IMG/VR virus record: IMGVR_UViG_2974642717_000001
Span: 14,146-78,145 of that record
From: a virus
Lineage: Duplodnaviria > Heunggongvirae > Uroviricota > Caudoviricetes > Schitoviridae
DNA: 64,000 bases
Strand: one strand, 5' to 3'
How positions within the stretch are numbered: position 1 is the first letter of the stretch; each line of letters starts with the position of its first letter. Of the stretch, positions 6,544 to 20,281 are shown one piece after another. The notes below the pieces were generated by a model. The model worked only from the letters and a program-made list of their open reading frames with translations, made no database searches and was not told the origin of the DNA. Both the position numbers and the translations under genes were made by a program.

Positions 6544-8565
6544 ATGGGAAAATACGCAACATCGGTAGCCTCATATGCTACCAACATAAATGATATAACA
6601 GGGAATCCCACTAAGAACACGATTGCATCTATATGTCATAAAAGAGAAGTAGGCGATCATAAGTCGGTTAACTCCTCACTACTTGAGTCCATGCATAACG
6701 GATTGGCCGTAAAGGTTAACTCTGGTATTAAGTATGGCAGGGAGGAGTATGTATACGGACTGCCTGAAGGTTATATAGTAACAGCAGATATTGATGTCAG
6801 TGTGGTCCAAGAAGTAATATCCGAAGAGTTAGGTACTGAGGTCAACATTGATGTTGCTTTTATAGCTGAACCTGATCCAGATTACTTTGCTCGGTGGCAT
6901 TCGTATAATAACTGGGGTGGTGATCCTTTAACCGGTCACATGACTGATCCTCCTGTTGATGGGGATGATGTTAGAATTGTAGAGTCTGCATGGACTAGCT
7001 ACGGTCAACTAGAAATTCTGGTTGGTTACGAGCAAAGTGACGGTCAATTCAAGAATGAAACATTCATTGTATGGCCCCCAACAAATGTAAACCTAAAAGA
7101 GCAGTACTACCACGTAATATACACCCGAGAAGATACCATCTTCCCTACTAGTGACTTTTGGATTTACGAGTTAGGTACCGATACCATTCCTGAACTCGAG
7201 GTGGAAGTGGAGGATACCCTAGACAGCCCTTTCTTACCTGTGGTTCCAGTAAGGGAGAACAATATAAACTTAGGTCCTGAATCCAAAGATGGTGAATTTA
7301 TATATGATGAGGATGGTCAGAAGATAGTACCGGATACAGAGCTATACCGAACCAGTGTAAAGCTATGTGAGAAGTTTAGGATAGGTTTTGATGATATATC
7401 CCGTGAGATTACCGGCAACCCCGATGTAGCTAGTATTGACCACGCGTACATTATTTTTGGTATCGATATACGCTCGGACACTAAACCAGGTAAGACCTTC
7501 TTATTCGACTTCTTTGAGAAGTTAGCCTTTAGTACTATAGGCGCTTCCGAGATTGAAGTAAGGGATGCTCAGTACTATAAGATACGTATAATATTTGATT
7601 CATGTACATCTATGGATGAGGTGGGCGACTTAGACGAAGTAGAGGTCGAATATTCAGGCAATACTATGTACCTACGTGCCCCACTAGAACCGGGTATGTA
7701 CCGTGAAATTACCGTAGTAAATCCAATACACGTTAACTATGTGTACAAGGCCCATACTGTCGTAACCACATTGGCAGATAGTGCGGATGAAGAAAACTAT
7801 AATTTCATTGTACCCTTAGAGTATTTTATTGCTCAGTCTGCAGGATCTTTGTTTGATAGGGAAAGGTTGTATGTGGAGGCAGCTAAGATAGTATTTAACT
7901 GCTATGAAAGGAAGAAACTTAAGTGGTACCAGAGTGGGTGGTTTAAGATAGTTTTGGTTGTGGTAGCTATCGTGGTAACAGTATTTACAGGGGCAGGTGG
8001 TGCCTTCGTGGCAGCACTAGAGGCAGGTATAACAGCTACTGTATTGTACTTGGTACAAGCAGTCTTAATATCTACTCTAATAAAGTATGGCTTCCAGATG
8101 CTGGTGGATGTGTTGGGAGTAGAAATAGGTATATTATTAGCTGTAATAGCCGCTGTAGCGTCTTTCATGGTAGGTGATACAACTGGCATACTTAGCGCAG
8201 AAAACCTTATGACAGCGTCCTCAGGCTTTATAGTGGGAGCAGATGCTTCCCTATCAGCAGACATGGAAAAGTTAGCTAAGGAGATGGCAGCATGGACAGA
8301 TGAAGCTCAGAGATTAGATGACGAGTTGAATGAAGCTTTTGAAGAGCTAGATACAGACACTTTCTTTAATGTATATGACTTCATCAATGCAGGTAACATA
8401 TTCGTACCTAATGAGGTTCCTGAAGAATACTTCAATAGAACCATTCATACAGGTAACATTGGTGTAGGTACTCTGTCTGTACCTGAGAACTATGTAGACA
8501 ATGCTTTGACGTTACCTACAGTTAGCCGCTTTATGGGGTATGAGGATACAGAGGATGGCGTTTAG
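6544..8565 (+). CDS. virion-module protein with four C-terminal transmembrane helices; codon usage foreign to its neighbours
   Basis: 673 aa. Hydrophobic stretches at aa ~455-540 (FKIVLVVVAIVVTVF..., ITATVLYLVQAVLISTLI..., IGILLAVIAAVASFMVG). Frequent ATA, AGG/AGA and GGG/GGA codons that are almost absent from adjacent late genes. Confidence 0.5.
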   Translation: MGKYATSVASYATNINDITGNPTKNTIASICHKREVGDHKSVNSSLLESMHNGLAVKVNSGIKYGREEYVYGLPEGYIVTADIDVSVVQEVISEELGTEVNIDVAFIAEPDPDYFARWHSYNNWGGDPLTGHMTDPPVDGDDVRIVESAWTSYGQLEILVGYEQSDGQFKNETFIVWPPTNVNLKEQYYHVIYTREDTIFPTSDFWIYELGTDTIPELEVEVEDTLDSPFLPVVPVRENNINLGPESKDGEFIYDEDGQKIVPDTELYRTSVKLCEKFRIGFDDISREITGNPDVASIDHAYIIFGIDIRSDTKPGKTFLFDFFEKLAFSTIGASEIEVRDAQYYKIRIIFDSCTSMDEVGDLDEVEVEYSGNTMYLRAPLEPGMYREITVVNPIHVNYVYKAHTVVTTLADSADEENYNFIVPLEYFIAQSAGSLFDRERLYVEAAKIVFNCYERKKLKWYQSGWFKIVLVVVAIVVTVFTGAGGAFVAALEAGITATVLYLVQAVLISTLIKYGFQMLVDVLGVEIGILLAVIAAVASFMVGDTTGILSAENLMTASSGFIVGADASLSADMEKLAKEMAAWTDEAQRLDDELNEAFEELDTDTFFNVYDFINAGNIFVPNEVPEEYFNRTIHTGNIGVGTLSVPENYVDNALTLPTVSRFMGYEDTEDGV

Positions 8566-8636: not shown

Positions 8637-9326
8637 ATGGCAGATACAAATAATGGATTCTTTGGTGGTGTCTCTAACTGGTGGGATCAAAACTTTGTCC
8701 AACCTACAGAGGGTGCTTACCAAGGTCTCCCGGGGGTAACTCCAGCATATAAGAATAGTACGGGTGTAATCACCCCTAATGGCGCCGCTACTCCAGTAGC
8801 TGGTGGTTTTCAACCAATTGTTAATAGCAACACAGCACAGGTAGACAACTGGACACCACGTAACAATAACTTTGCTGCACCGCAAACTGCAAACTCTGTA
8901 TCTCCGGGTACACAGCCAGCACTGTTTGCACCACAGACACAAGGTGGTATTGCTACCCCGGGTACAGTGGGAACTGATCCAAGCATCTTCCAAGCTATTG
9001 GCAATCATACCGACGGTTCTTGGGTAGGTAATCCTAACATTGCAAGTGTAGGTACTAACCCTCAACAGGCAAGCTTCTTAAGTGGAGTGGGTGATACATT
9101 GAGCGGCGGTTGGGATGCTATCGGTGGAATGCAGGGACTGTCCCAAGGACTAGGTGCACTGTCGGGTATTGGTCAAACTTATATGGGCTTCCAACAGTTG
9201 GGTCTAGCAGAAGATCAATTCAACTTTACGCGTAATGCATGGCAACAGGATTACGATATGCGTCTAGCAGATTACAATCGTCAGGTATCTCGTCAGGAAG
9301 ACCGTGATGCTGCGTTAGCTCGATAA
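8637..9326 (+). CDS. Gly/Thr/Pro/Gln-rich low-complexity virion protein, 229 aa
   Basis: ORF with SD GAGGAAAT; low-complexity composition typical of internal or ejection proteins. Confidence 0.45.
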   Translation: MADTNNGFFGGVSNWWDQNFVQPTEGAYQGLPGVTPAYKNSTGVITPNGAATPVAGGFQPIVNSNTAQVDNWTPRNNNFAAPQTANSVSPGTQPALFAPQTQGGIATPGTVGTDPSIFQAIGNHTDGSWVGNPNIASVGTNPQQASFLSGVGDTLSGGWDAIGGMQGLSQGLGALSGIGQTYMGFQQLGLAEDQFNFTRNAWQQDYDMRLADYNRQVSRQEDRDAALAR

Positions 9327-9336
9327 GGAGGACATA

Positions 9337-10194
9337 ATGGCAATTACATGGCAATCAGTAAGTACACCTAACTTTAATGCGAGTAATAACTTAGCAGTTC
9401 AGGCAGGTAATACTATTACAGGTGGTATTGATCGTCTTGCTAAGTCAGCACAGGGAGTGGCTGACCGACAGAAGGCATCAACACACGCAGAGTTTCAACA
9501 TAACCTTTTAGACCTCAGTATGAATCCTGACTTGAATAAGAATGAGTTCTTGAGCCAAGCACTTCAAATGAGTAAAGAGAATAACCTTGATCCTAATCAG
9601 GCATTGAAGCAGATTGAGTCTATTCGTAATGTACGTAACACAGCAGAGCAGTTGGATGGTGGTCAGCAGTTAGAGTTTGATAACATGCAGAGTAACCTAG
9701 CTAACCTGCAACAGTTAGGGCAGCAGAACATTCAGGCACAGTTGGAAGCGTTTGACCAACGTAACCCTCAGGTACGTCAGACTGCACTAGATTTAAATAC
9801 GTTTGAAGCTGGTGGTGGTTTAGGTTCTATTTTGAATGAGATGTATGGGAGTATTGAGGGTACGGGTGACCGTGAGGAAACTTCAGATGTTTTCAACGAA
9901 GTACGTCAAGGATATGACAATGACTTTGTAGTTGCTCAGGCACTTCAAGAAGTAGGTCTAGGTGAGGTGGGTTTTATATTTGATAGTTCATTAATCAACT
10001 CGGAGAAGTTTAAGAGTGCTTTAAACTTCCACCAGAAACGTATGGATACGTACCAGAAGAATGCTGAAGCTCGGACTACTCTACAGAATGTACTTAGTAA
10101 CAAACTAAATACAGATCTGCAAAAAGGACGTAGTGACCTCGAAAAATGGAATCGTGATACTAAAGCGAGTAACTTACGTAGTTTTTCTTTCTAA
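9337..10194 (+). CDS. structural-module hypothetical protein, 285 aa
   Basis: ORF with SD AAGGAGGA; Q/N-rich. Confidence 0.45.
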   Translation: MAITWQSVSTPNFNASNNLAVQAGNTITGGIDRLAKSAQGVADRQKASTHAEFQHNLLDLSMNPDLNKNEFLSQALQMSKENNLDPNQALKQIESIRNVRNTAEQLDGGQQLEFDNMQSNLANLQQLGQQNIQAQLEAFDQRNPQVRQTALDLNTFEAGGGLGSILNEMYGSIEGTGDREETSDVFNEVRQGYDNDFVVAQALQEVGLGEVGFIFDSSLINSEKFKSALNFHQKRMDTYQKNAEARTTLQNVLSNKLNTDLQKGRSDLEKWNRDTKASNLRSFSF

Positions 10195-10246
10195 AAAAGC
10201 CATTATCCTCTAATATAGTCAGTTCTTAATTAAGAGGAAAAATACT

Positions 10247-13200
10247 ATGGCAAATATCTTTTATGGGGCCGATGCAGTTAATCAAGTTGAACTTGCGGAA
10301 GGCCCTCTTTCACCTATCGAGCGTGTGATCGTAGAGGAAGAAGGTTATGCTGATGCTCCGTACGCAGACACCAAGGGTATTACTACCACTGGGGTTGGTC
10401 AGACAGGTGACTACGCTAGCATGTCAGCTAAGGAAGCAATCGCAGACAAGACTCAACAGACACGTCAACTGATCCCAGCTTTTGATAATCTAGACGTAGA
10501 TACTCAAGCACAGTTGGTTTCAGCTATGTACCGTGGTGACCTAGGCCAAAGCCCTAAAGCACGTGCCCTATTTAATCAGGGTAAGTATGCTGAGGCGGCT
10601 GATGAGTTCCTAAACAATGACGAGTACAGAATAACTCAACACCCTGCCATCCAGAGACGTATGGAGCGTGTGGCTGATGCTATGCGTAACGCAGGAAATA
10701 CTCAGGAAGCTGCCGCAGAGTTTGAATTGCAGAACAACCCTGAAGTTACCCCTATTACTTCTCAAACCACTGTCCCTACAACAGGTGACAAGAAGATGGT
10801 TGAGCTAGAAGCAAAGAACACAGCCAAGATGGAAGAACTTGCAGTTAAGTCTGAGCAGAAGCAAATGAAAGCTGCGGGCATGACTGACGAGCAATTCAAC
10901 GCATTAGACCAATCTCTTGAGCAATACATCCAAGCAGGTGACCCGTCTGAGGCAGCCGCACGTGCAACATTCTACCTAGATGCACAACGTACACAGCAGG
11001 AGCTAAGTGCAGCAATCAATGCGCCTAAAGATGAGACAATCTTCCAAGACTTGAATAACCCTCTAGAGTTTGCAGGCAACACTCTATTATCTACAGCTAA
11101 CGCTATTGGTAATATCTTTGGTGGTTTGGCTTCTATCCCTTCAGAGATCCGTGCAGGTCTAAACTTATCTAATGTAAGTGCAGAAGACATGGCTATGTAC
11201 AACCAACTGCAAGGTCGTTCAGAAGCTGTATGGACTGATGAAGAATACAAATGGTACCAAGATAATCAAGATGCTGTTGCAGATATCCAGAAAGCTGAAG
11301 AACAGTTTGCTGTAAGTGATGCAATCAGCGGTGTAACTGGTGTACTTGAACCATATATCAATAGTGAATTAGGTGAAGACTTCGTAGCCGAAGGTAAAGA
11401 CATCTATGATGATGCCCTAGCAGGTAACTCATCTGCTGGTGAGATCGTTAATGGTCTTACTAACCTGTTCATTAATAATCCGGGTGCACTAACACAGACT
11501 ACGGTTGAATCACTTCCTTATATGATTGCAGCGGCATACAACATGCCTATGACAATGGCGTCAGGTTGGGCAAACAACCAGTCAGAAGCTATTCAAGCAT
11601 TCGAAGAAGAGAACGGTACACTTCCAACAGAGAAAGACCTAGCTAAGATCACTGCTCTTACTGGTGCTCAAGCATTAGTAGATATGGCAGGTGACCGTCT
11701 AGTAACCGGTGGTGCAGCAAACCTTAAGAAGTCTGTACAGGCTTTAACAGGTAAGAAAGTAGCAGCTAAAGGTGTAGGCGCAGCAACAGGTCGAGCAGCT
11801 GTATCAGCAGCCGGTGAGTTTGCGGCAGAAGGTGGTGCAGATGTACTAGGCCAATTAGCGGCAACAGCCGGTGAAGGTGACGTAGATGTAGGCCAAGCAG
11901 TTGGTACCGGTTTACTTGGTGCAGGCTCTGGCGGTGCTACCTCTATTGCGGTAGACGCTCCACAGGTTGTAGCGGATGCAGGTAAAGCAACAGCTAAGAC
12001 AGCACAGACAGCTACTACTAAAGTAAAAGAAGTTAAGACTAGTAAGACTTACAAAGATGCTGCTAAGACTAATGACCCCTCTGTATTGCCTAAACAAGGC
12101 GATAAAGGTTATGACGCTAAGCAGGATGTAGAAGCACGAACTGCTATGCTGGAGTCAGGTGCTCTAGAAGAATCTGTAGCTAAAGAGTCTTATAACCAAG
12201 TTATCAAAGATAACAATGCTCGTATTAAAGAGTTCCAAGAACTTAAAGCTAAATCTGATGCTGGTGACACGTCGGTTAATACCCGTGCACGTGAAGTATT
12301 TGCAGAGATCAAAGCTATTAAGCCTATTGTTGCTCGAGCTAAAGCAACACGTGCCCCTAAGAATGTACAAGCACAGGCTACTAATCTAGCAACAGCTACG
12401 ACTAACAACACGAACACAGCAGCGGCTGTTAATACTGTTCTTGGTTCTATGGCTCAAGATCCTCAAGCTATTCCAGTTGAGACTGTAAAACAGATTCTTG
12501 ATAACGAGTCTCTGAACCTTACTGCATTCCAACGTGCACGTATGAACGCTAACCTTACTACACGTACTGCAGAAGTGAGTCTTGATGACGTAAGTCGTGA
12601 GATCATCCAAGGTAGTTCAGCTAACATGGGTGTTCGTCAGTACGTAGCTGAATCACTTGCAGCAGTGGAGATTGAAGATACAGATACAGCACAGTCGTTG
12701 CTTACTGGTCTACAAGCATTCCGTTCTAGTCAAGTTAAGAAGCTAAACCGTGAAGGTAACACAGCTCGATTCACTGAAAACGTGACTAAAGAGATTCGTT
12801 ACATGGATGCAGCTATTAATGAAATCCGAATTGCACTTGGAGGTACAACTGATGCTGATACTACTATTAACGATACTGTGGCTACTGATGATGTTAGCGA
12901 TAGTGTGGATGGAGAAAATGTAGATGGTGATATTACAACTGATAATGCTGACACTGCTAGTAGCGATACTACTGTCCCTACCGAGGGAGTAGCCGAGCAA
13001 CAAGCTTCGGCTCCGTCCGAAGCGCAGGTTGCGGAGGATACGACTACTACACTTTCACCTCTTGCTGAATCTTTGCCAGCTCCTTTGGAACTTCCAGAAG
13101 ATGCTGAGATTTCTGCTGAGGACTTACACGTAGATGCTCTAATCGAGGAAGCACAAGTGCTACTTGCCGAGGGAACTACATACGATCAAACAATTGAAGC

Positions 13201-16200
13201 AATTGAACAACGTTTCGGTAAAGAGACTGCTGACTTTGTTGCTGATGGTTTGGAGTCTGAACAGGCTGAAAGCCAAGGTACTCTAGGTGAGCAACTTACT
13301 CGATCTCTAACAGAAGCTCCTGAAGAAGTAGCTTACTCTGTTGATCTGGATGCAGTTGAGAAAGTAGACGAACGCCTAACCAACCTAATTACTTCAGCTG
13401 GTTTGGCTCAATCTAGTCCACATCTGAACGATGCATTAGAAGATGTTAAAGCATCAATCCGTGCTGGCGCTACAGTAGCAGCATCAATTAAAGAGATTGT
13501 TCCTGCTTATACAGGTAAGCCGGTTAAACGTCTGAATGCTTCAGTACGTAAACTACAAGCTGACATCAACCGCGTACCTACTAACGTAGATAGCGGCATG
13601 ACAGTCGAAGAGCGTAAGTCGTGGCTACAACAAGTGAACTGGGTAAAAGAGTTCTTTACTCCAACTAATCCAGACAACATCTTACAGACTAATGGCAACT
13701 TGTTTAACCAAGCTAGCTCTCGTCGTCAGATTGAGGAGTACATTGGACGACCTCTTACAGATGGTGAACTAGAACAGTTAATCGATTACAACACTCGTCG
13801 AAAGTCTTTAGCTACGGCACTAGATAAAGTATTTAGTACTGAAGGTTACACAGACAACTACGCTCTAGGCGAACGCGATGCTGAAGGTAAACTGAAAGCA
13901 CCCAAGTACAACGATATGATGCAGTACCTTGCTGAAGACGGTGAATTACCTGCTGGAGTTAAAGAAGCAATCATCTCAGCTGCGTATAACTGGATTGCTA
14001 CATCTGCAGGTGACACGCTGTTTAATGAGGACTCAGCAATGAATAGTATTCTTGGTGAGACTAATGGTGATGCACACATCCACCGCGATGTACGTAACAT
14101 CCTGCAAGGTGTTGGTACAACACGTACTACAATCCTACAGTCATTAGGCAAAGACGTAATGAGCACGATTGGTATCTCTGGTACACGTAATGCACCGGGC
14201 AACGTTAACTCTAAGTTAGAGACTTCACTTGGCCAATTTACTCTTGAAGTTATGAAGCAAGCAGGTGTTGTTAAACAAACACAACTGTCGAAAGAAGATA
14301 TGGCAACGCTTAACCGTTTCTCTAAAGACGATGCAGGTGTTAGCCCTAACATCCGATTCATCAAAGCAGCTACAAACAAGGAAGGTAAACTACACACTAA
14401 ATTGAATGATGTGGTTCAACTTACTAAAGAAGCTCGTATCTCTGCACGTGAAACAGGTACACCGGCAGCATGGACACAGATGTTTGGTATTCAATCTCGT
14501 CAGGTATTCCCTGAGTTTGAGAAGCCTACCGAAGTAGCAACTAAAGTAACTGGCACTAACCGTGATGTACCACGCAAGACACAAGAAGTTCTAGCTAAGC
14601 ATAATGCACGCGAACACTTCCTTAAAGGTGATCTTACAGCTATGGCTCAAACAATGGCTGAGGAAGCTTCTGATGAGTTTATGAAGTTACTTGGTGTAAC
14701 AGACCCTGATTCAGTTCACGTCTCTCGTCGTGATGCACAGGACGCAGATAACCGTAATATCGAACGTGTATGGGGTAACTTTGATGAGTTCTACCGTCAG
14801 AACCTAGAAGTAGGTCTTGATCAACCACACTACTACACACATAACGTGTGGAAGAATGGTCGTTTTGGTATTGCACAGAATATGGTTAACCCTCAGGGTG
14901 ACAAGATTCACCGCGCATTCATTAAACAGAAAGGTTGGGATGTAGAGCTAGATCCAAACAACGTAGAACAGATGTCACAGTTCTGGGCTGCTATGGATGA
15001 AGAGTTAGGTTTTGATAATCGTAATGACATGCCCCGTTATATACAAGAAGCTGCGAACATTGTACGTGGATTCCTTGAGACAGATACATTCGAAGATGGT
15101 GATATCGAGACTCTATCAGCAATCATCCGTAATGAGCTTGGTGGTGCTTCTAACACAGCAATGCTGAAACTAGATGCAATCATGCATATCGCACGTCATG
15201 ACATCGCGGTAGATACTAATGAAACTTTCCAATCAGAAATGTTCATGGAAATCGATGGTAAGACAAACGGTATCATTATCTCACTGATTCAGTATGGTGC
15301 AGCAGCAACAGGTATTGATTTGCTTAATTTAGTTGGTATGGGTGGTCTATACGGAGAAGGGGATATCCGTAACTTTAATGACTTTAAGAAGGCAGGTAAT
15401 CTAGATGCGTACAACAAGTTAGCTAAAGATTGGATTAAGAATCTAAAACTTACTTACACAGGGGCGGACACAACAGCAATGTTCAAACTGTTTGGTCTAA
15501 TTGATGAGAAAGGTAATGCAGTACCTAAACAGGAACGTAACCTAGCGAAGAACCCACTAATGGTAATCTTCTATGGTTCAGGTGAGAACGCGGTTAAGCA
15601 ATCTCTAGGTTCAGCATTCACTGAAGTGGTAATGGATAAATTGGAAGCAGCTGGTCAAGCCGGCGATCTTCAAGCGTACAATGACATCCGTGACGAACTG
15701 AACAAGATTGTTCCTCATGCACTTCCAGAAGTAACACAGGCGAGCCAAATCTTAGAAACAGATCTAAGTAATGCTACCCTTGCTAAACTGGAAGAGACAG
15801 TAGGGGAAGTGTTCGGTTCAACTGCATACGCAGAAGTTCAGGCTCAGTACCCAGAGTACATGAAGCGTCGTGACCAAGTTCGTGATGTATATGACTCAAT
15901 GTACCGTCGCCATGCAGCGCTACGTGAGAAGTTAATCGAGAAGCGTAAAGCAGAGCTAGTAGCACTAGGTCAATTGTCTAACTTAGAGGATATGGCTAAG
16001 CACGAGTACCGCGCTATTGATGATCGAATTGCAGCAGTCGGTCCACACTTTAACTCTCACTCTACTAAGGGTGGTCCAGTTGAAGAGTCGATTGATCCAA
16101 GCAAGACTAAGACAGAGGTTGATACTAAGACACGTGTACAAGCTAAATACGGTAACAAAGAACAGAAGGTAACTTCTGAAGGTACTAAGCGTGTACCGGC

Positions 16201-19200
16201 AGCACCGGGTGTTGGTGCAGGTCCAATGAGTATTCACAGTGCAGATGCTTCAATCATGCGTGAAACGTATGATAACGACATTGACTCTATTGGTGTTCAC
16301 GATGCTAACTTAATCGGTATTACCGATGCTAAGAAGCTGGGACAAGTACAGAACAAAGCTTTTGAGACTGTTACACGTGAGACGAGTGTACTAGTAGAAA
16401 CTCTTAAAGCATTCCGTAACTCTGACCAGACTTACACATCAATCATCAAGGAAGAAGGTTTAAACCGTACTGAATTAGATAGTGCGGCAAATGGTTTAGA
16501 TACTCCAATTGAACCTACTGTTATCCGTGAACGTCTACTTGATCTAGTAGATTCTACTAAAGCAGCAGGCCGAGTGAAGGATGAGATGTGGCAGAACACT
16601 CGTTATGTACATCAATACGCTGACCATAATGGCGTCTCAGCGCATGAGTCTAACACTAAGAAGTGGGAACGCTTCCAGTACGTTAAGTCTGGTGATGCTA
16701 AGTCTGTAGCTGCGAATGCAGCGGAAGACGTTGTTACAGAATCATTAGGATCTAGTCAAGGTATCGACTTTGCAGAGGCAAGTGATTCTAACAACTATGA
16801 TAACTCAGTAGACGTTGACCTAACTAACGTTGGTGAAGTATTCGAATCATTGCCGGCAACAGGCGGTAAGATTGAGAACGATGTACATAAAGAGACTCTA
16901 CGTGGAATGGTCTTCAACCTAACCAACAAACTGTCAGTACCGTTTGGTTTCCATATGCGTGAGAAAGAAGATGTTCCTAACTACGGTGTAGCAACACAGT
17001 CTGACATTTACCTAACTACGTTAGCTAATGGCGCACCTGAAACATCAGGCATCTTGGCTCAAGGTATTCGTATGAGTCCAGAAGAGATCATGGCACACGA
17101 ACTGAATCACTTAGTATTTGCAGAAGGTTTTAAAACAGATTCACGTTACCGTCGTCAATTTGAACGTATCTTCAACGCTGTGAAAGCTGAGGCTACCCCG
17201 GATATCTTCCTAGAGAACCCGGTTAACCCTACGGCCGCAGAGCAAGAAGCTGCTCAGAAGCATTTTGACTACATCTTCAACAACAAAGATGGTAACAGCC
17301 TTGAAGAGTTTGGTGCATTTGCTACTACTAATGAGAAGCTAATCGACTTTACCAACACAATCACAGTTAAGCCGGAGAAGTGGGTACAAGGTGATAGCCC
17401 TTACGAGATTATGGTTAACATCCTTTCCCGTATTGTGGATGCTTTCAATGCTCGTATCTTACACCTTTCGGATATTAGCAACGATAAGAAGCTATTCGCT
17501 CTTATGGATGGTATGAACCGTATTACAGGTAAGAAGCAGAACGGTATTATTGAAGCAGCGCAGAGTGCAGCAGCTATGGCACAACAAGTAATGCAGATTC
17601 CTTCAGCGATGATTGAAGGGGCAGCACGTAAGTTGGCGGCAGTACCAGTGTTCAAAGACAGTCGTTACGCAACAGTACGTATACTGTCGGAAGCAGTACG
17701 TAAAGGTAACTCTGGTCGTGACCTGAACCAAGCAATGTTAGATCACCTTAACTTGATGCGCGACATCACTACCGAGAATAAGTATGGGTGGTTCCAATCT
17801 ACAGCAGATGAGATGATTGGTCGTACAGTTGATAACGCTACATTCCGTGATATGGCACGTACTTCTAACGTAATGCTAGATATGGGCCGTAAGCGTGCTA
17901 AGGATGCAATGACGAAACACATTCAAAACTCTTTCACTACCCCGGTAGAAGATAGCGAATGGAATGCAATCAACAAAGTAATCCTTAAACTAGACATCGA
18001 CTCTATTTCAGATATTGGTTTAGAGAAGGTAGGTCAATTGATGAATAGTGATGCTGCACTTGAAACTGAGATTGCAGGTCTAGAGCAATTGCTTAAGACT
18101 TTCAACAACTACAACTTCTACCGCCGTCATGCAGAGAACCTAGGTTACTTCATGAATACTGGCCGTAGTATGGAAGCAGCAGCACTGTTGAATGCTCACA
18201 ATATCTCTAAAGGATACGGTGATACTAAGATGAATGTTACTGATGCAACCGCAGCTCGAGTTGAACCAATCGTAGATAAACTAGCAACGCTTTACGGTAT
18301 CAAGCATGCAGATGCTACTAACCGAAATGCAATTGCTGACCTAATCAGTCGCGATGTAGACGGTATCAATGCAGTAATTGATGCTCACCACACACTGAAA
18401 GAAGGTTCAAAGGATCAGTTCGCTTCTACACAGGAACAGAAGACACTATCTCTAAAAGGTTGGACTAAGGAAGAGTACAATGCAGCAACTGGTGTTGAAG
18501 TAGCAACTCTGGATAAACGTGAAGAACTAGAGTCTCAAGGTTACATCATGCAAGAGAATCCGATTCCTCGTGATAGTAAAGACCCTGTTCAAACTGACAT
18601 GTATATGTTCGTGGCTCCTGATGGTGCACTTGCTCCATACATGGCACAGATTGCATCTCTTACTAGTAATGTGGCTAAAGGTTCTGACACAGTGAAGGTT
18701 GAAGCTCAGTACGGTGCAGATAACCCATACGATTCAGGGTTGGTTGATGTAGGTATCATCAATAAAGGTAAAGAGGCTGCACAAGCACAGGTTCACCTGA
18801 ACCCTGTTAGTCCGGGCCCAAGTGGTAACAAGATGATTCCAATCATTTCACCGAAGGACGGTAAAGTAGTGGGTTGGCGTTATATGATGACCGAAGCTAA
18901 TCGTGATGAGATTCTTCAAAAGGATAACAACGCAGCTAACGTTCTTGGCGCCATGGCCGGTAACATCGTAGATAAGATTAAAACACAGGAAGTTAATAAA
19001 GAGTTGGTAACAGCAGCTAAAGCTCAATACGATGCAGACCTAGCTAAAGGTCGTGGTAATGCATATGTTGAGATTAGTGAGGAAGCAGAAGGTGAGTTGC
19101 TTGAGATTTGGCGTAGAATGCCTGAGGAAATGCAGAAAGAGGTTGTGAGTACGTTTGGTTCTCCGCGCATGATGGTACGTTCTGACTTGGTAGACCAGAT

Positions 19201-20281
19201 GTTCGGTTACCGTAAACCAAGTATCAATGAGTTGTTTGAGAAAGATCCTGCTGCTCGTCGTTACTGGGAGCACATGGTTGTTCAGGTACTATCTACTGTA
19301 TTACCAAAGGATACAGTACAGAAGGTTCGTAAAGCTGAAAACATCATTCAAGCAGTTGTGCAAGAGACTAAGGATATTGTTGTAGTACGTTCAATCGTAG
19401 TACCACTATTCAACGTATTCTCAAACACAATGTTCTTGATGCTTCAAGGTATCGATCCTGTAACTGCAATCCGTGGACAGGTAGAAGCGTACGTAGCCGG
19501 TAACCGTCTTGTAGCAGACATTCGTAAGAAAGATGAGCTAACTATCCAAGTAGCAGCTAAGTCTATTCAAGCGGCTACACGTACACGATTACTAGGTGAA
19601 TTAGCAGCAGTTGAAAGACGTATTGCTATCAACCCTACTAATGCTTCTTACCAAGCGGGTATGATGCCATCGGTAGTAGATGATGCAGAGACTAACGTAA
19701 ATATCTCTAACTCTCTACGTGGTCAGACTCAACGTAAGGTGAGTGCAGGTGTTGATAAAGTATTCGGTCGTATGCCGGCTCTAGTGCCAGATACAATCAA
19801 AGGTGTTCTAGGTTTGCCAGACAGTACAGCTTACCGCGCAATGAATAACTTTGTACGTAACTCTGACTTTATCGCTCGTCACGTTGTAGCTAACCATTGG
19901 GCAGCTCAACAAGCGAAAGAGCAAGGTCGTGCAGTAACGGAAGCACAGATGAATGAGCACTATGCAGAAGCAACTGAACTGTTTGTTAACTTTGATGCTC
20001 CTACTCACCGAGGCACACAGTACGCGAATGATATCGGTATTGCATGGTTCACTAAGTACTTGTTCCGTGTAAACAGGGCAGTGGCTAGAACATTCCTTAA
20101 GAACCCAGTTAAAGTATCTCTGGCAATGCTTGGTATGGAACTAGCAGGGTTTGATTCATTCTCTGATACTCCAATCGGTTCAGCTATGGTAGCAGGTCGT
20201 GATCCACTATCGACACTAGGTGACCCAGTTACCTCAGCTATCTCGGCACTAAGCCTAACAGTACCGGGCCAAGTCCTCTAA
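10247..20281 (+). CDS. virion-encapsidated RNA polymerase (N4 gp50-like vRNAP) with N-terminal T4-lysozyme-like domain
   Basis: 3344 aa. T7-like RNAP motifs: A 'EIDGKTNGIIIS' (~15251), B 'RNLAKNPLMVIFYGSGE' (~15536-15580), C 'IGVHDANL' (~16298). N-terminal ~150 aa resemble GH24/T4 lysozyme (EGYADAPYADTKGITTTGVGQ; later ...YAEAADEFLNN...QHPAIQRRMERV). Confidence 0.85.
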   Translation: MANIFYGADAVNQVELAEGPLSPIERVIVEEEGYADAPYADTKGITTTGVGQTGDYASMSAKEAIADKTQQTRQLIPAFDNLDVDTQAQLVSAMYRGDLGQSPKARALFNQGKYAEAADEFLNNDEYRITQHPAIQRRMERVADAMRNAGNTQEAAAEFELQNNPEVTPITSQTTVPTTGDKKMVELEAKNTAKMEELAVKSEQKQMKAAGMTDEQFNALDQSLEQYIQAGDPSEAAARATFYLDAQRTQQELSAAINAPKDETIFQDLNNPLEFAGNTLLSTANAIGNIFGGLASIPSEIRAGLNLSNVSAEDMAMYNQLQGRSEAVWTDEEYKWYQDNQDAVADIQKAEEQFAVSDAISGVTGVLEPYINSELGEDFVAEGKDIYDDALAGNSSAGEIVNGLTNLFINNPGALTQTTVESLPYMIAAAYNMPMTMASGWANNQSEAIQAFEEENGTLPTEKDLAKITALTGAQALVDMAGDRLVTGGAANLKKSVQALTGKKVAAKGVGAATGRAAVSAAGEFAAEGGADVLGQLAATAGEGDVDVGQAVGTGLLGAGSGGATSIAVDAPQVVADAGKATAKTAQTATTKVKEVKTSKTYKDAAKTNDPSVLPKQGDKGYDAKQDVEARTAMLESGALEESVAKESYNQVIKDNNARIKEFQELKAKSDAGDTSVNTRAREVFAEIKAIKPIVARAKATRAPKNVQAQATNLATATTNNTNTAAAVNTVLGSMAQDPQAIPVETVKQILDNESLNLTAFQRARMNANLTTRTAEVSLDDVSREIIQGSSANMGVRQYVAESLAAVEIEDTDTAQSLLTGLQAFRSSQVKKLNREGNTARFTENVTKEIRYMDAAINEIRIALGGTTDADTTINDTVATDDVSDSVDGENVDGDITTDNADTASSDTTVPTEGVAEQQASAPSEAQVAEDTTTTLSPLAESLPAPLELPEDAEISAEDLHVDALIEEAQVLLAEGTTYDQTIEAIEQRFGKETADFVADGLESEQAESQGTLGEQLTRSLTEAPEEVAYSVDLDAVEKVDERLTNLITSAGLAQSSPHLNDALEDVKASIRAGATVAASIKEIVPAYTGKPVKRLNASVRKLQADINRVPTNVDSGMTVEERKSWLQQVNWVKEFFTPTNPDNILQTNGNLFNQASSRRQIEEYIGRPLTDGELEQLIDYNTRRKSLATALDKVFSTEGYTDNYALGERDAEGKLKAPKYNDMMQYLAEDGELPAGVKEAIISAAYNWIATSAGDTLFNEDSAMNSILGETNGDAHIHRDVRNILQGVGTTRTTILQSLGKDVMSTIGISGTRNAPGNVNSKLETSLGQFTLEVMKQAGVVKQTQLSKEDMATLNRFSKDDAGVSPNIRFIKAATNKEGKLHTKLNDVVQLTKEARISARETGTPAAWTQMFGIQSRQVFPEFEKPTEVATKVTGTNRDVPRKTQEVLAKHNAREHFLKGDLTAMAQTMAEEASDEFMKLLGVTDPDSVHVSRRDAQDADNRNIERVWGNFDEFYRQNLEVGLDQPHYYTHNVWKNGRFGIAQNMVNPQGDKIHRAFIKQKGWDVELDPNNVEQMSQFWAAMDEELGFDNRNDMPRYIQEAANIVRGFLETDTFEDGDIETLSAIIRNELGGASNTAMLKLDAIMHIARHDIAVDTNETFQSEMFMEIDGKTNGIIISLIQYGAAATGIDLLNLVGMGGLYGEGDIRNFNDFKKAGNLDAYNKLAKDWIKNLKLTYTGADTTAMFKLFGLIDEKGNAVPKQERNLAKNPLMVIFYGSGENAVKQSLGSAFTEVVMDKLEAAGQAGDLQAYNDIRDELNKIVPHALPEVTQASQILETDLSNATLAKLEETVGEVFGSTAYAEVQAQYPEYMKRRDQVRDVYDSMYRRHAALREKLIEKRKAELVALGQLSNLEDMAKHEYRAIDDRIAAVGPHFNSHSTKGGPVEESIDPSKTKTEVDTKTRVQAKYGNKEQKVTSEGTKRVPAAPGVGAGPMSIHSADASIMRETYDNDIDSIGVHDANLIGITDAKKLGQVQNKAFETVTRETSVLVETLKAFRNSDQTYTSIIKEEGLNRTELDSAANGLDTPIEPTVIRERLLDLVDSTKAAGRVKDEMWQNTRYVHQYADHNGVSAHESNTKKWERFQYVKSGDAKSVAANAAEDVVTESLGSSQGIDFAEASDSNNYDNSVDVDLTNVGEVFESLPATGGKIENDVHKETLRGMVFNLTNKLSVPFGFHMREKEDVPNYGVATQSDIYLTTLANGAPETSGILAQGIRMSPEEIMAHELNHLVFAEGFKTDSRYRRQFERIFNAVKAEATPDIFLENPVNPTAAEQEAAQKHFDYIFNNKDGNSLEEFGAFATTNEKLIDFTNTITVKPEKWVQGDSPYEIMVNILSRIVDAFNARILHLSDISNDKKLFALMDGMNRITGKKQNGIIEAAQSAAAMAQQVMQIPSAMIEGAARKLAAVPVFKDSRYATVRILSEAVRKGNSGRDLNQAMLDHLNLMRDITTENKYGWFQSTADEMIGRTVDNATFRDMARTSNVMLDMGRKRAKDAMTKHIQNSFTTPVEDSEWNAINKVILKLDIDSISDIGLEKVGQLMNSDAALETEIAGLEQLLKTFNNYNFYRRHAENLGYFMNTGRSMEAAALLNAHNISKGYGDTKMNVTDATAARVEPIVDKLATLYGIKHADATNRNAIADLISRDVDGINAVIDAHHTLKEGSKDQFASTQEQKTLSLKGWTKEEYNAATGVEVATLDKREELESQGYIMQENPIPRDSKDPVQTDMYMFVAPDGALAPYMAQIASLTSNVAKGSDTVKVEAQYGADNPYDSGLVDVGIINKGKEAAQAQVHLNPVSPGPSGNKMIPIISPKDGKVVGWRYMMTEANRDEILQKDNNAANVLGAMAGNIVDKIKTQEVNKELVTAAKAQYDADLAKGRGNAYVEISEEAEGELLEIWRRMPEEMQKEVVSTFGSPRMMVRSDLVDQMFGYRKPSINELFEKDPAARRYWEHMVVQVLSTVLPKDTVQKVRKAENIIQAVVQETKDIVVVRSIVVPLFNVFSNTMFLMLQGIDPVTAIRGQVEAYVAGNRLVADIRKKDELTIQVAAKSIQAATRTRLLGELAAVERRIAINPTNASYQAGMMPSVVDDAETNVNISNSLRGQTQRKVSAGVDKVFGRMPALVPDTIKGVLGLPDSTAYRAMNNFVRNSDFIARHVVANHWAAQQAKEQGRAVTEAQMNEHYAEATELFVNFDAPTHRGTQYANDIGIAWFTKYLFRVNRAVARTFLKNPVKVSLAMLGMELAGFDSFSDTPIGSAMVAGRDPLSTLGDPVTSAISALSLTVPGQVL

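Follow-up and report, generated by a model that had tools for sequence, protein, structure and literature searches.

The window analysed in this study is a stretch of 64,000 bases which, by coordinate offset, corresponds to the last 64,000 bases of the record of Vibrio phage vB_VspP_pVa5 (pVa5; 78,145 bp), placed by that record in Schitoviridae; Pontosvirinae; Galateavirus. It carries the gene for the virion RNA polymerase (vRNAP), and the first 200 codons of this open reading frame (ORF) are 100% identical to the “virion RNA polymerase” of pVa5 (KX889068.2 / NC_049379.1). Based on sequence profiles and a structural model, residues 1 to approximately 150 of this giant protein can be securely assigned to a predicted GH24 (T4-lysozyme-type) domain. 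The features at the beginning of the gene are as follows, with all positions referring to the window.

10247..20281, plus strand: vRNAP gene, pVa5 gp025, 3344 amino acids (aa), a single uninterrupted ORF
10233..10238, plus strand: Shine-Dalgarno sequence AGAGGA, 8 nt upstream of the vRNAP ATG, read from the sequence
10247..10699, plus strand: predicted GH24 / T4-lysozyme-type muramidase domain, residues 1 to ~151 (profile, alignment, AlphaFold2 (AF2) and Foldseek)
10340-10342, 10367-10369 and 10385-10387, plus strand: predicted catalytic residues E32, D41 and T47, respectively (family alignment and hhalign)
10700..10816, plus strand: Thr/Pro/Glu/Gln-rich linker, residues ~152-190 (composition), preceding the conserved vRNAP N-terminal region

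The start codon is backed by the N-terminal sequence MANI(F/L)YG, which is conserved in phage VBP47. The original prediction held that the vRNAP begins with a T4-lysozyme-like (GH24) domain, and profile, alignment, catalytic triad and AF2/Foldseek comparisons all agree with it. The T4 lysozyme (T4L) catalytic signature that it quoted lies within vRNAP residues 32-51, where E32-G33, Y39, D41-T42, G44, T47, G49 and G51 have exactly the spacing of E11-G12, Y18, D20-T21, G23, T26, G28 and G30 in T4L. The later “W/Y..AA..L....Y.Q.P” helix is found at residues 114-127, with Y114, A117-A118, L122 and Y127 corresponding to W126, A129-A130 and Y139 of T4L and with two extra residues before Q-x-P. The end originally proposed for the domain (position 10700, around residue 150) agrees with the domain boundary given above.

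The Pfam comparison asked for at the outset gave 23.4 bits against PF00959 for vRNAP residues 1-200 (gathering score 22.3; E 8e-5), which is marginal for a single sequence. When the single pVa5 domain sequence was compared with the PDB, P22 lysozyme was matched at E 0.01. As the single-sequence match was only marginally significant, relatives were collected, and 23 metagenomic proteins (41-54% identity) together with phage homologs yielded a 28-sequence alignment. Several of the metagenomic relatives have LysM domains or carry the source name “GH24 family phage-related lysozyme”. Residues E32, G33, Y39, G49 and G51 are invariant in this alignment, and D41 and T47 are conserved in at least 90% of the sequences (24-28 homologs). 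PF00959 was matched by 25 of the 28 subfamily members, the best at 1.3e-12. The profile built from the 28 members matched 504 PDB sequences at E<=0.01, and all 60 of the matches listed were lysozymes or T4L fusion constructs, with P22 lysozyme first (7e-7) and T4L at ~2e-5. An hhalign comparison with T4L gave a probability of 86% and an E value of 4.6e-6, and aligned E32, D41 and T47 to E11, D20 and T26. Pfam support for the predicted domain is therefore marginal for the single sequence and solid at the level of the family.

The AF2 model of residues 1-160, made with the family alignment, had a pLDDT of 95.6 and a pTM of 0.88. All 50 PDB matches listed by Foldseek were T4L, T4L fusion constructs, DLP12 endolysin, P1 Lyz and R21 of phage 21, and the predicted model has the two-lobed alpha+beta fold of T4 lysozyme. 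Low-scoring TPR matches at residues 105-121 and a PDB match to FAP360 were rejected, as they cover one helix pair in the C-lobe of the lysozyme fold.

The rest of the gene, and the genes upstream of it, are laid out as follows.

10817..12826, plus strand: remaining vRNAP N-terminal region, residues ~191-860 (hydropathy scan and conservation in VBP47/pYD6-A)
11081-11137 and 11897-11953, plus strand: Gly/Ala-rich, moderately hydrophobic segments, residues 279-297 and 551-569, candidate membrane-interacting segments (hydropathy scan)
12827..13276, plus strand: acidic Ser/Thr-rich low-complexity linker, residues ~861-1010 (D+E 21-24 and K+R 2-8 per 100-aa block)
14825..16306, plus strand: single-subunit RNA polymerase core (motifs A, B and C; BLASTP against N4 gp50)
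15254-15271, plus strand: motif A, DGKTNG, residues 1670-1675 (pattern and BLASTP)
15536-15577, plus strand: motif B, RNLAKNPLMVIFYG, residues 1764-1777 (pattern and BLASTP)
16292-16306, plus strand: motif C, GVHDA, residues 2016-2020 (pattern and a weak alignment segment)
17057..20125, plus strand: C-terminal domain (CTD) homologous to the N4 gp50 CTD, residues 2271-3293 (phmmer and tblastn)
17096..17110, plus strand: HELNH (HExxH) motif at the start of the CTD, residues 2284-2288 (found by pattern only)
6544-8565, 8637-9326 and 9337-10194, plus strand: genes at the N4 gp53, gp52 and gp51 positions, encoding 673, 229 and 285 aa, respectively, the last being pVa5 gp024 (annotation and synteny)

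Core and CTD homology, giant size and gene neighbourhood all identify the pVa5 protein as a Schitoviridae vRNAP. It matches phrog_2206 (virion RNA polymerase) at E=0, and its residues 2271-3293 match the N4 vRNAP chains in the PDB at E 3.6e-50 (phmmer). In BLASTP, pVa5 residues 1527-1799 align to residues 1409-1698 of N4 gp50 at E 4e-14, a segment that includes motifs A and B. For motif C, the position comes from a pattern match, and its alignment to N4 gp50 is confined to a weak segment (E 0.88). All three polymerase motifs, at residues 1670, 1764-1777 and 2016, thus lie at the distance from the N-terminus originally proposed for them, motif C being weakly aligned. The match to PF21894 (N4_RNAP_helical) is weak, at 21.4 bits. 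The HELNH motif falls inside the region aligning to the N4 CTD, and an HExxH zincin-like metallopeptidase signature has been reported in N4-like vRNAPs (Iyer et al. 2017, PMC5512222). An antisense ORF of 179 aa (13858-14397, minus strand) lies wholly within the vRNAP gene and is most likely spurious.

N4 gp50 and the pVa5 protein are built to one overall plan, in which an extended N-terminal region is followed by a low-complexity linker, a T7-like polymerase core and finally a large CTD, and the gp53-, gp52- and gp51-position genes precede the vRNAP gene in both phages. The N4 linker, at residues 907-1006 (PMC13434306), is the parallel to the acidic linker of pVa5, and recent structural work on N4 describes its vRNAP as an unprocessed polyprotein (PMC13492108). 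Unlike pVa5, N4 has no detectable lysozyme domain in the N-terminal domain (NTD) of gp50. The vRNAP stretch around residues 265-310, which includes the first of the hydrophobic segments, is strongly conserved in VBP47 and pYD6-A. Because BLASTP found no similarity between the NTDs of pVa5 vRNAP and N4 gp50 (E at least 0.88), we can only infer a membrane role for the pVa5 segments by analogy with N4 (PMC13434306). Pfam and PHROGs scans of the pVa5 proteins at the gp53, gp52 and gp51 positions detected no wall-hydrolase domain.

[quoted passage not shown] An ARAGORN scan of the window was negative for tRNAs, though the pVa5 paper mentions an interrupted tRNA.

The GH24 subfamily is not confined to vRNAPs. 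In the Alteromonas autographivirus H4/4, it heads the internal virion protein at the gp16 position (~1950 aa), and the module is annotated there twice (gp39/gp40): as a 161-aa “putative endolysin” and as a part of the internal virion protein, to which a proposed -1 frameshift would fuse it. Near-identical ORFs of 157-162 aa that end a few codons past the domain occur at many IMG/VR loci, so that a recurrent frameshift arrangement is possible. In the Zobellviridae, the subfamily is found at the C-terminal end of a protein of 782 aa (VPMCC5) or lies within a 257-aa protein with a transmembrane helix (521E56-1). It is encoded by 491 IMG/VR contigs. Among the 80 best loci, the domain makes up a small ORF in 53, the N-terminus of a protein of ~1520-1580 aa in 16 (one with an additional match to a “virion structural protein” PHROG), the C-terminus of an ORF of 770-1025 aa in three, and the head of a Nahant phage vRNAP in two. 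The GH24 module is thus a mobile cassette for a predicted wall hydrolase, serving as an endolysin in some settings and recurring at one end or the other of large virion proteins.

When the CTD was used as a tblastn query, vRNAP homologs were found in 474 phage records, and the N-terminal 200 aa located the GH24 module on the vRNAP in only 15 of them: pVa5 (two records), six Vibrio phages of the Nahant collection (eight), PJN101 (one), and VBP47 and VBP32 (four). These phages belong to three genera, Galateavirus (pVa5), Nahantvirus and Stoningtonvirus (VBP47, VBP32 and PJN101), and the fusion is confined to one marine clade. Its carriers are the vRNAPs nearest to that of pVa5 by CTD (85% and 44% identity), with the one exception of Pseudoalteromonas phage pYD6-A (44%). 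Between pVa5 and the Nahant phages, identity is 87% for the GH24 module and 85% for the CTD; between pVa5 and VBP47, the values are 59% and 44%. The module is thus conserved as much as or more than the CTD, which argues for purifying selection.

Other vRNAP representatives were sampled by hand. No Pfam wall hydrolase was found in either the N-terminal 900 aa or the N-terminal 200 aa of the vRNAPs from N4, JSF3, MS02, PT15-A5, LP14, Presley, D456, 1.238.B, D491 and DSS3P2, and the result for N4 gp50 bears out the earlier statement that the canonical N4 vRNAP has no muralytic domain. The same was true of the N-terminal 900 aa of the PG11 vRNAP and of the frameshifted vRNAP region of AD45-P1, the start of which was scanned in one reading frame. 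However, the sensitivity of Pfam is limited here: the GH24 domain of VBP47, 55% identical to that of pVa5, was missed in the 900-aa scan at E<=0.01 and scored 18 bits when submitted as a 160-aa piece. The Pfam negatives for the other vRNAPs therefore mean that nothing was detectable rather than that absence is proven. A protein-homolog search with the polymerase core (residues 1101-2150) gave no significant hit among 8000 word candidates.

The exception, pYD6-A, is informative. Its CTD is as close to that of pVa5 as is the CTD of VBP47, yet its vRNAP begins with a different module of ~170 aa at the position of the GH24 head, and homology among the pVa5, VBP47 and pYD6-A vRNAPs resumes immediately after the head module and linker (alignment A3). 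In PHROGs, the pYD6-A module is assigned to phrog_27932 (“baseplate hub subunit and tail lysozyme”; 1.6e-21), and in tblastn it aligns with the equivalent part of gp5-like proteins from T4-like phages of rhizobia and from jumbo phages of Tenacibaculum (1e-10 to 1e-20). A module of this type is also located at the C-terminal end of a protein of 1547 aa in Pantoea phage TacPo2, and the family is marked by an invariant Glu-Ser together with the motifs Y-x-G-x-YQ-x-G and SHLVG. A homolog 60% identical to the pYD6-A module was modelled with a pLDDT of 87, and almost all of its Foldseek matches in the PDB were lytic transglycosylases or related lysozyme-like enzymes (phiKZ gp144, MltD, Slt/Slt70, MltE, MltF, goose-type lysozyme, phi6 lysin and Rpf domains). 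The scores were weak (E 0.02-0.4, TM-score 0.35-0.5), although the list was uniform. Among PDB sequences, the pYD6-A module found no match either as a single sequence or as a profile, and in Pfam there was no more than a hint of PF06737 (E 0.14), so that the assignment draws on PHROGs, tblastn and the weak but uniform Foldseek list. We consider the pYD6-A head to be a different wall-cutting module, with a predicted lytic-transglycosylase-like fold. As the modules have been swapped between sister lineages, a wall-cutting head of one kind or another seems to be maintained here by selection, and the swap, as judged from sequence and modelled folds, would be difficult to account for if wall cleavage by the vRNAP head were not the selected function.

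Acinetobacter phage Presley offers another arrangement. In this phage, an SLT domain (PF01464, 4e-9, residues 273-353) is carried by the gp51-position protein upstream of the vRNAP, and therefore Schitoviridae differ in which ejection protein bears a wall hydrolase. No wall-hydrolase domain was detectable in N4 gp51 or in eight other gp51-position proteins, that of pVa5 included. The gp51-position protein is 285-288 aa long in pVa5, VBP47 and pYD6-A, compared with 402-644 aa in ten other Schitoviridae, and no family match accounts for the short protein of the head-bearing lineages (phrog_20377, unknown function).

The nearest functional parallel might be T7 gp16, the internal virion protein D (IVP-D) of the Autographiviridae. 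This protein, the largest of those ejected, likewise starts with a wall-cleaving domain, which travels from the capsid via the tail and opens the wall at entry. The head of T7 gp16 is a GH23/SLT-type transglycosylase. That of pVa5 differs in being of the GH24 type, with the Glu-Asp-Thr triad typical of hydrolytic muramidases, and its carrier, which includes an RNA polymerase as well, exceeds gp16 more than twofold in length. By analogy, the pVa5 head may be functionally the same solution drawn from another lysozyme family. The original prediction had instead set the fusion apart from the T7 group, in which a transglycosylase is placed on ejected gp16. This contrast is misleading, as the vRNAP has been described as embedded in a homolog of IVP-D (the T7 gp16 group), and internal virion proteins as hosts of tail lysozymes (Hardies et al. 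2016, PMC4819975). It is also undercut by the GH24 head on the gp16-position protein of H4/4. The two observations together indicate that the pVa5 fusion follows the same design as T7 gp16 and is not an alternative to it.

The endolysins T4 gpe, P22 gp19, P1 Lyz and phage 21 R21 share the fold and the triad positions of the pVa5 domain. However, they are free-standing or signal-arrest-release (SAR)-anchored, late proteins that act from within, whereas the pVa5 domain heads an injected protein, lacks T4L residues ~31-57 and has a 30-residue N-terminal extension. The tail lysozyme of T4 gp5 is also of the GH24 type and belongs to a virion part that touches the wall at penetration, but it sits at the rigid external tip of a contractile tail, whereas the pVa5 head would be internal cargo threaded through a short podovirus tail. 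The pYD6-A head, in turn, is homologous to the lysozyme region of the gp5-like hub proteins of the rhizobial and Tenacibaculum myophages mentioned above.

We propose that the head of the pVa5 vRNAP is probably a virion-delivered muramidase that opens the peptidoglycan during ejection, that is, a catalytically competent GH24 domain joined to the rest of the protein by a flexible linker; the proposal combines sequence and model evidence with analogy to other phages. Its enzymatic activity, its exposure in the periplasm and its action at entry rather than at lysis are what we infer. The Glu-Asp-Thr triad suggests a true muramidase and not a transglycosylase. Packaging and ejection of the vRNAP have been shown for N4 and DEV (PMC13434306, PMC11445570), and the pVa5 vRNAP is likely, by analogy, to be packaged and ejected as well; a pVa5 virion proteome was not found in the pVa5 genome paper (PMC5746245). 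In N4, the vRNAP is one of the ejection proteins, its NTD becomes associated with the inner membrane, and ejection needs a peptidoglycan hydrolase, yet none is present among the N4 ejection proteins according to the 2026 ejectosome paper (PMC13434306), which states that the source of peptidoglycan hydrolysis at N4 entry is unknown. The events in pVa5 might then be that: the vRNAP, packaged in the capsid, is expelled through the tail at infection; the GH24 head, as the leading end of the polypeptide, reaches the periplasm first; the head cuts glycan strands locally, letting the trans-envelope channel and the N-terminal region pass the wall; the rest of the N-terminal region then associates with the inner membrane; and the polymerase and CTD, beyond the acidic linker, go on to the cytoplasm.

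Several observations weigh against this proposal. The PF00959 score drops to 19.0 bits, below the threshold, when the whole 3344-aa protein is searched. The Foldseek TM-scores to solved lysozymes are moderate (0.52-0.64), and the hhalign alignment shows that the pVa5 domain lacks the equivalent of T4L residues ~31-57. In most Schitoviridae, no such domain is detectable at the vRNAP N-terminus. In addition, the transglycosylase of T7 gp16 is dispensable under many laboratory conditions, and therefore the phenotype of a pVa5 mutant could be conditional. Finally, in the current N4 model, the vRNAP exits the capsid last, via a periplasmic tunnel built by gp52 and gp51 (PMC13434306). If pVa5 follows this order, the lysozyme might arrive after the wall has been crossed, perhaps shielded within the tunnel. 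Conversely, if the lysozyme on the vRNAP is functional, the N-terminus would, in this clade at least, come into contact with the peptidoglycan at an earlier point or away from the tunnel.

A different possibility is that the head acts at lysis, with unpackaged or released vRNAP serving as an auxiliary glycan-cutting endolysin beside an M15 peptidase after holin opening. This would fit the lack of a canonical N4 lysis cassette in pVa5, VBP32, VBP47 and pYD6-A, the clade with a vRNAP head module (PMC5746245), and the occurrence of LysM domains or a transmembrane segment in free-standing members of the GH24 subfamily, as in ordinary endolysins. However, every member of the clade has a stand-alone endolysin in the form of a 120-aa M15 peptidase (PF08291, 1e-11; RefSeq label, endolysin) adjoining phoH, and this pair is conserved throughout, including in pYD6-A and VBP47. 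In pVa5, the peptidase gene is at record positions 12963-13325, just upstream of the window and on the strand opposite to the structural genes. As a dedicated lysis enzyme thus exists, a giant packaged protein is unlikely to be a second one, and a 3344-aa protein packaged at a few copies per virion would be an odd choice for lysis. Moreover, entry is the stage indicated by the repeated occurrence of both the GH24 subfamily and the pYD6-A module on virion, internal and tail-lysozyme proteins. We therefore regard a role at lysis as unlikely.

Equally, there is little probability that the lysozyme fold is mainly non-catalytic, acting as a peptidoglycan-binding anchor or as an element of ejectosome assembly or packaging. 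The divergence from characterised GH24 enzymes (17-21% identity, with the TM-scores and the shortened N-lobe noted above) would be consistent with such a role, as would the conserved 30-residue N-terminal extension. On the other hand, the catalytic Glu is invariant and the Asp and Thr nearly so among the 28 members, which include free-standing LysM-linked enzymes, and the module that replaces the GH24 head in pYD6-A has an invariant Glu-Ser of its own, as if catalysis rather than a binding surface had been retained. The last explanation, that a sequencing or assembly error joined a separate lysozyme gene to the vRNAP gene or that the motif matched by chance, might draw on the separate 161-aa annotation in H4/4 and the 157-162-aa ORFs at many IMG/VR loci but is extremely improbable and was rejected, since the pVa5 ORF reads through from the domain into the remainder without a stop codon or shift of frame, 15 records sequenced independently and two IMG/VR entries show the fusion in frame, and the profile, fold and catalytic-residue evidence excludes a chance match.

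Beyond the proposal of a muramidase acting at entry, a more specific reading may be considered, although we hold it to be doubtful at present. One marine clade of Schitoviridae would possess an exchangeable wall-cutting cassette on its vRNAP, paired with a short gp51-position protein, and, if the cassette does act on peptidoglycan, the vRNAP N-terminus would have to meet the wall before or during building of the conduit, taking over part of the role of gp51. If true, this would contradict a simple order of ejection in which the vRNAP comes last through a finished tunnel, and the clade would be a genetically tractable system for studying how Schitoviridae cross the peptidoglycan.

The idea of a lysozyme linked to a vRNAP is already known. 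In addition to the work of Hardies et al., Iyer et al. (2017) described lysozyme and transglycosylase domains as partners of N4-like RNA polymerase modules and proposed that they breach the peptidoglycan at invasion (PMC5512222), and GenBank MG592410 labels the vRNAP of a close relative, 1.026.O, a “lysozyme domain protein” (IPR023347). The polyvalent proteins of Iyer et al. unite an N4-type RNA polymerase, an HExxH region and a lysozyme-superfamily domain in one giant protein, and pVa5 likewise joins a polymerase to a lysozyme-type domain and has a candidate HExxH region, but their example is DR90_1081 of a Moraxella prophage and not a member of the Vibrio clade, and no exchange of a GH24 for a transglycosylase-like module among sister phages is described (PMC5512222). 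The pVa5 genome paper does not mention the vRNAP domain and names the M15 peptidase as the sole lysis-related enzyme (PMC5746245). What appears modestly new here is: the restriction of the fusion to one marine clade; the swap of two predicted lysozyme-like modules at one site; and the possible implication for ejection order and topology.

These results correct the published annotation of pVa5, which lists the M15 peptidase alone as wall-active, and draw attention to a compact subfamily of GH24 domains with a wide distribution among marine phages, as the number of IMG/VR contigs indicates. The transit of a polymerase of 3,500 residues, together with DNA, across the wall in N4-like phages is under active study. 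The pVa5 clade supplies in cis, on the polymerase itself, a predicted wall enzyme of the type that is missing from the N4 ejection proteins. It may therefore serve as a natural system for learning when and where the vRNAP N-terminus meets the peptidoglycan, in which order the ejection proteins leave the capsid, and under which conditions wall hydrolysis is needed.

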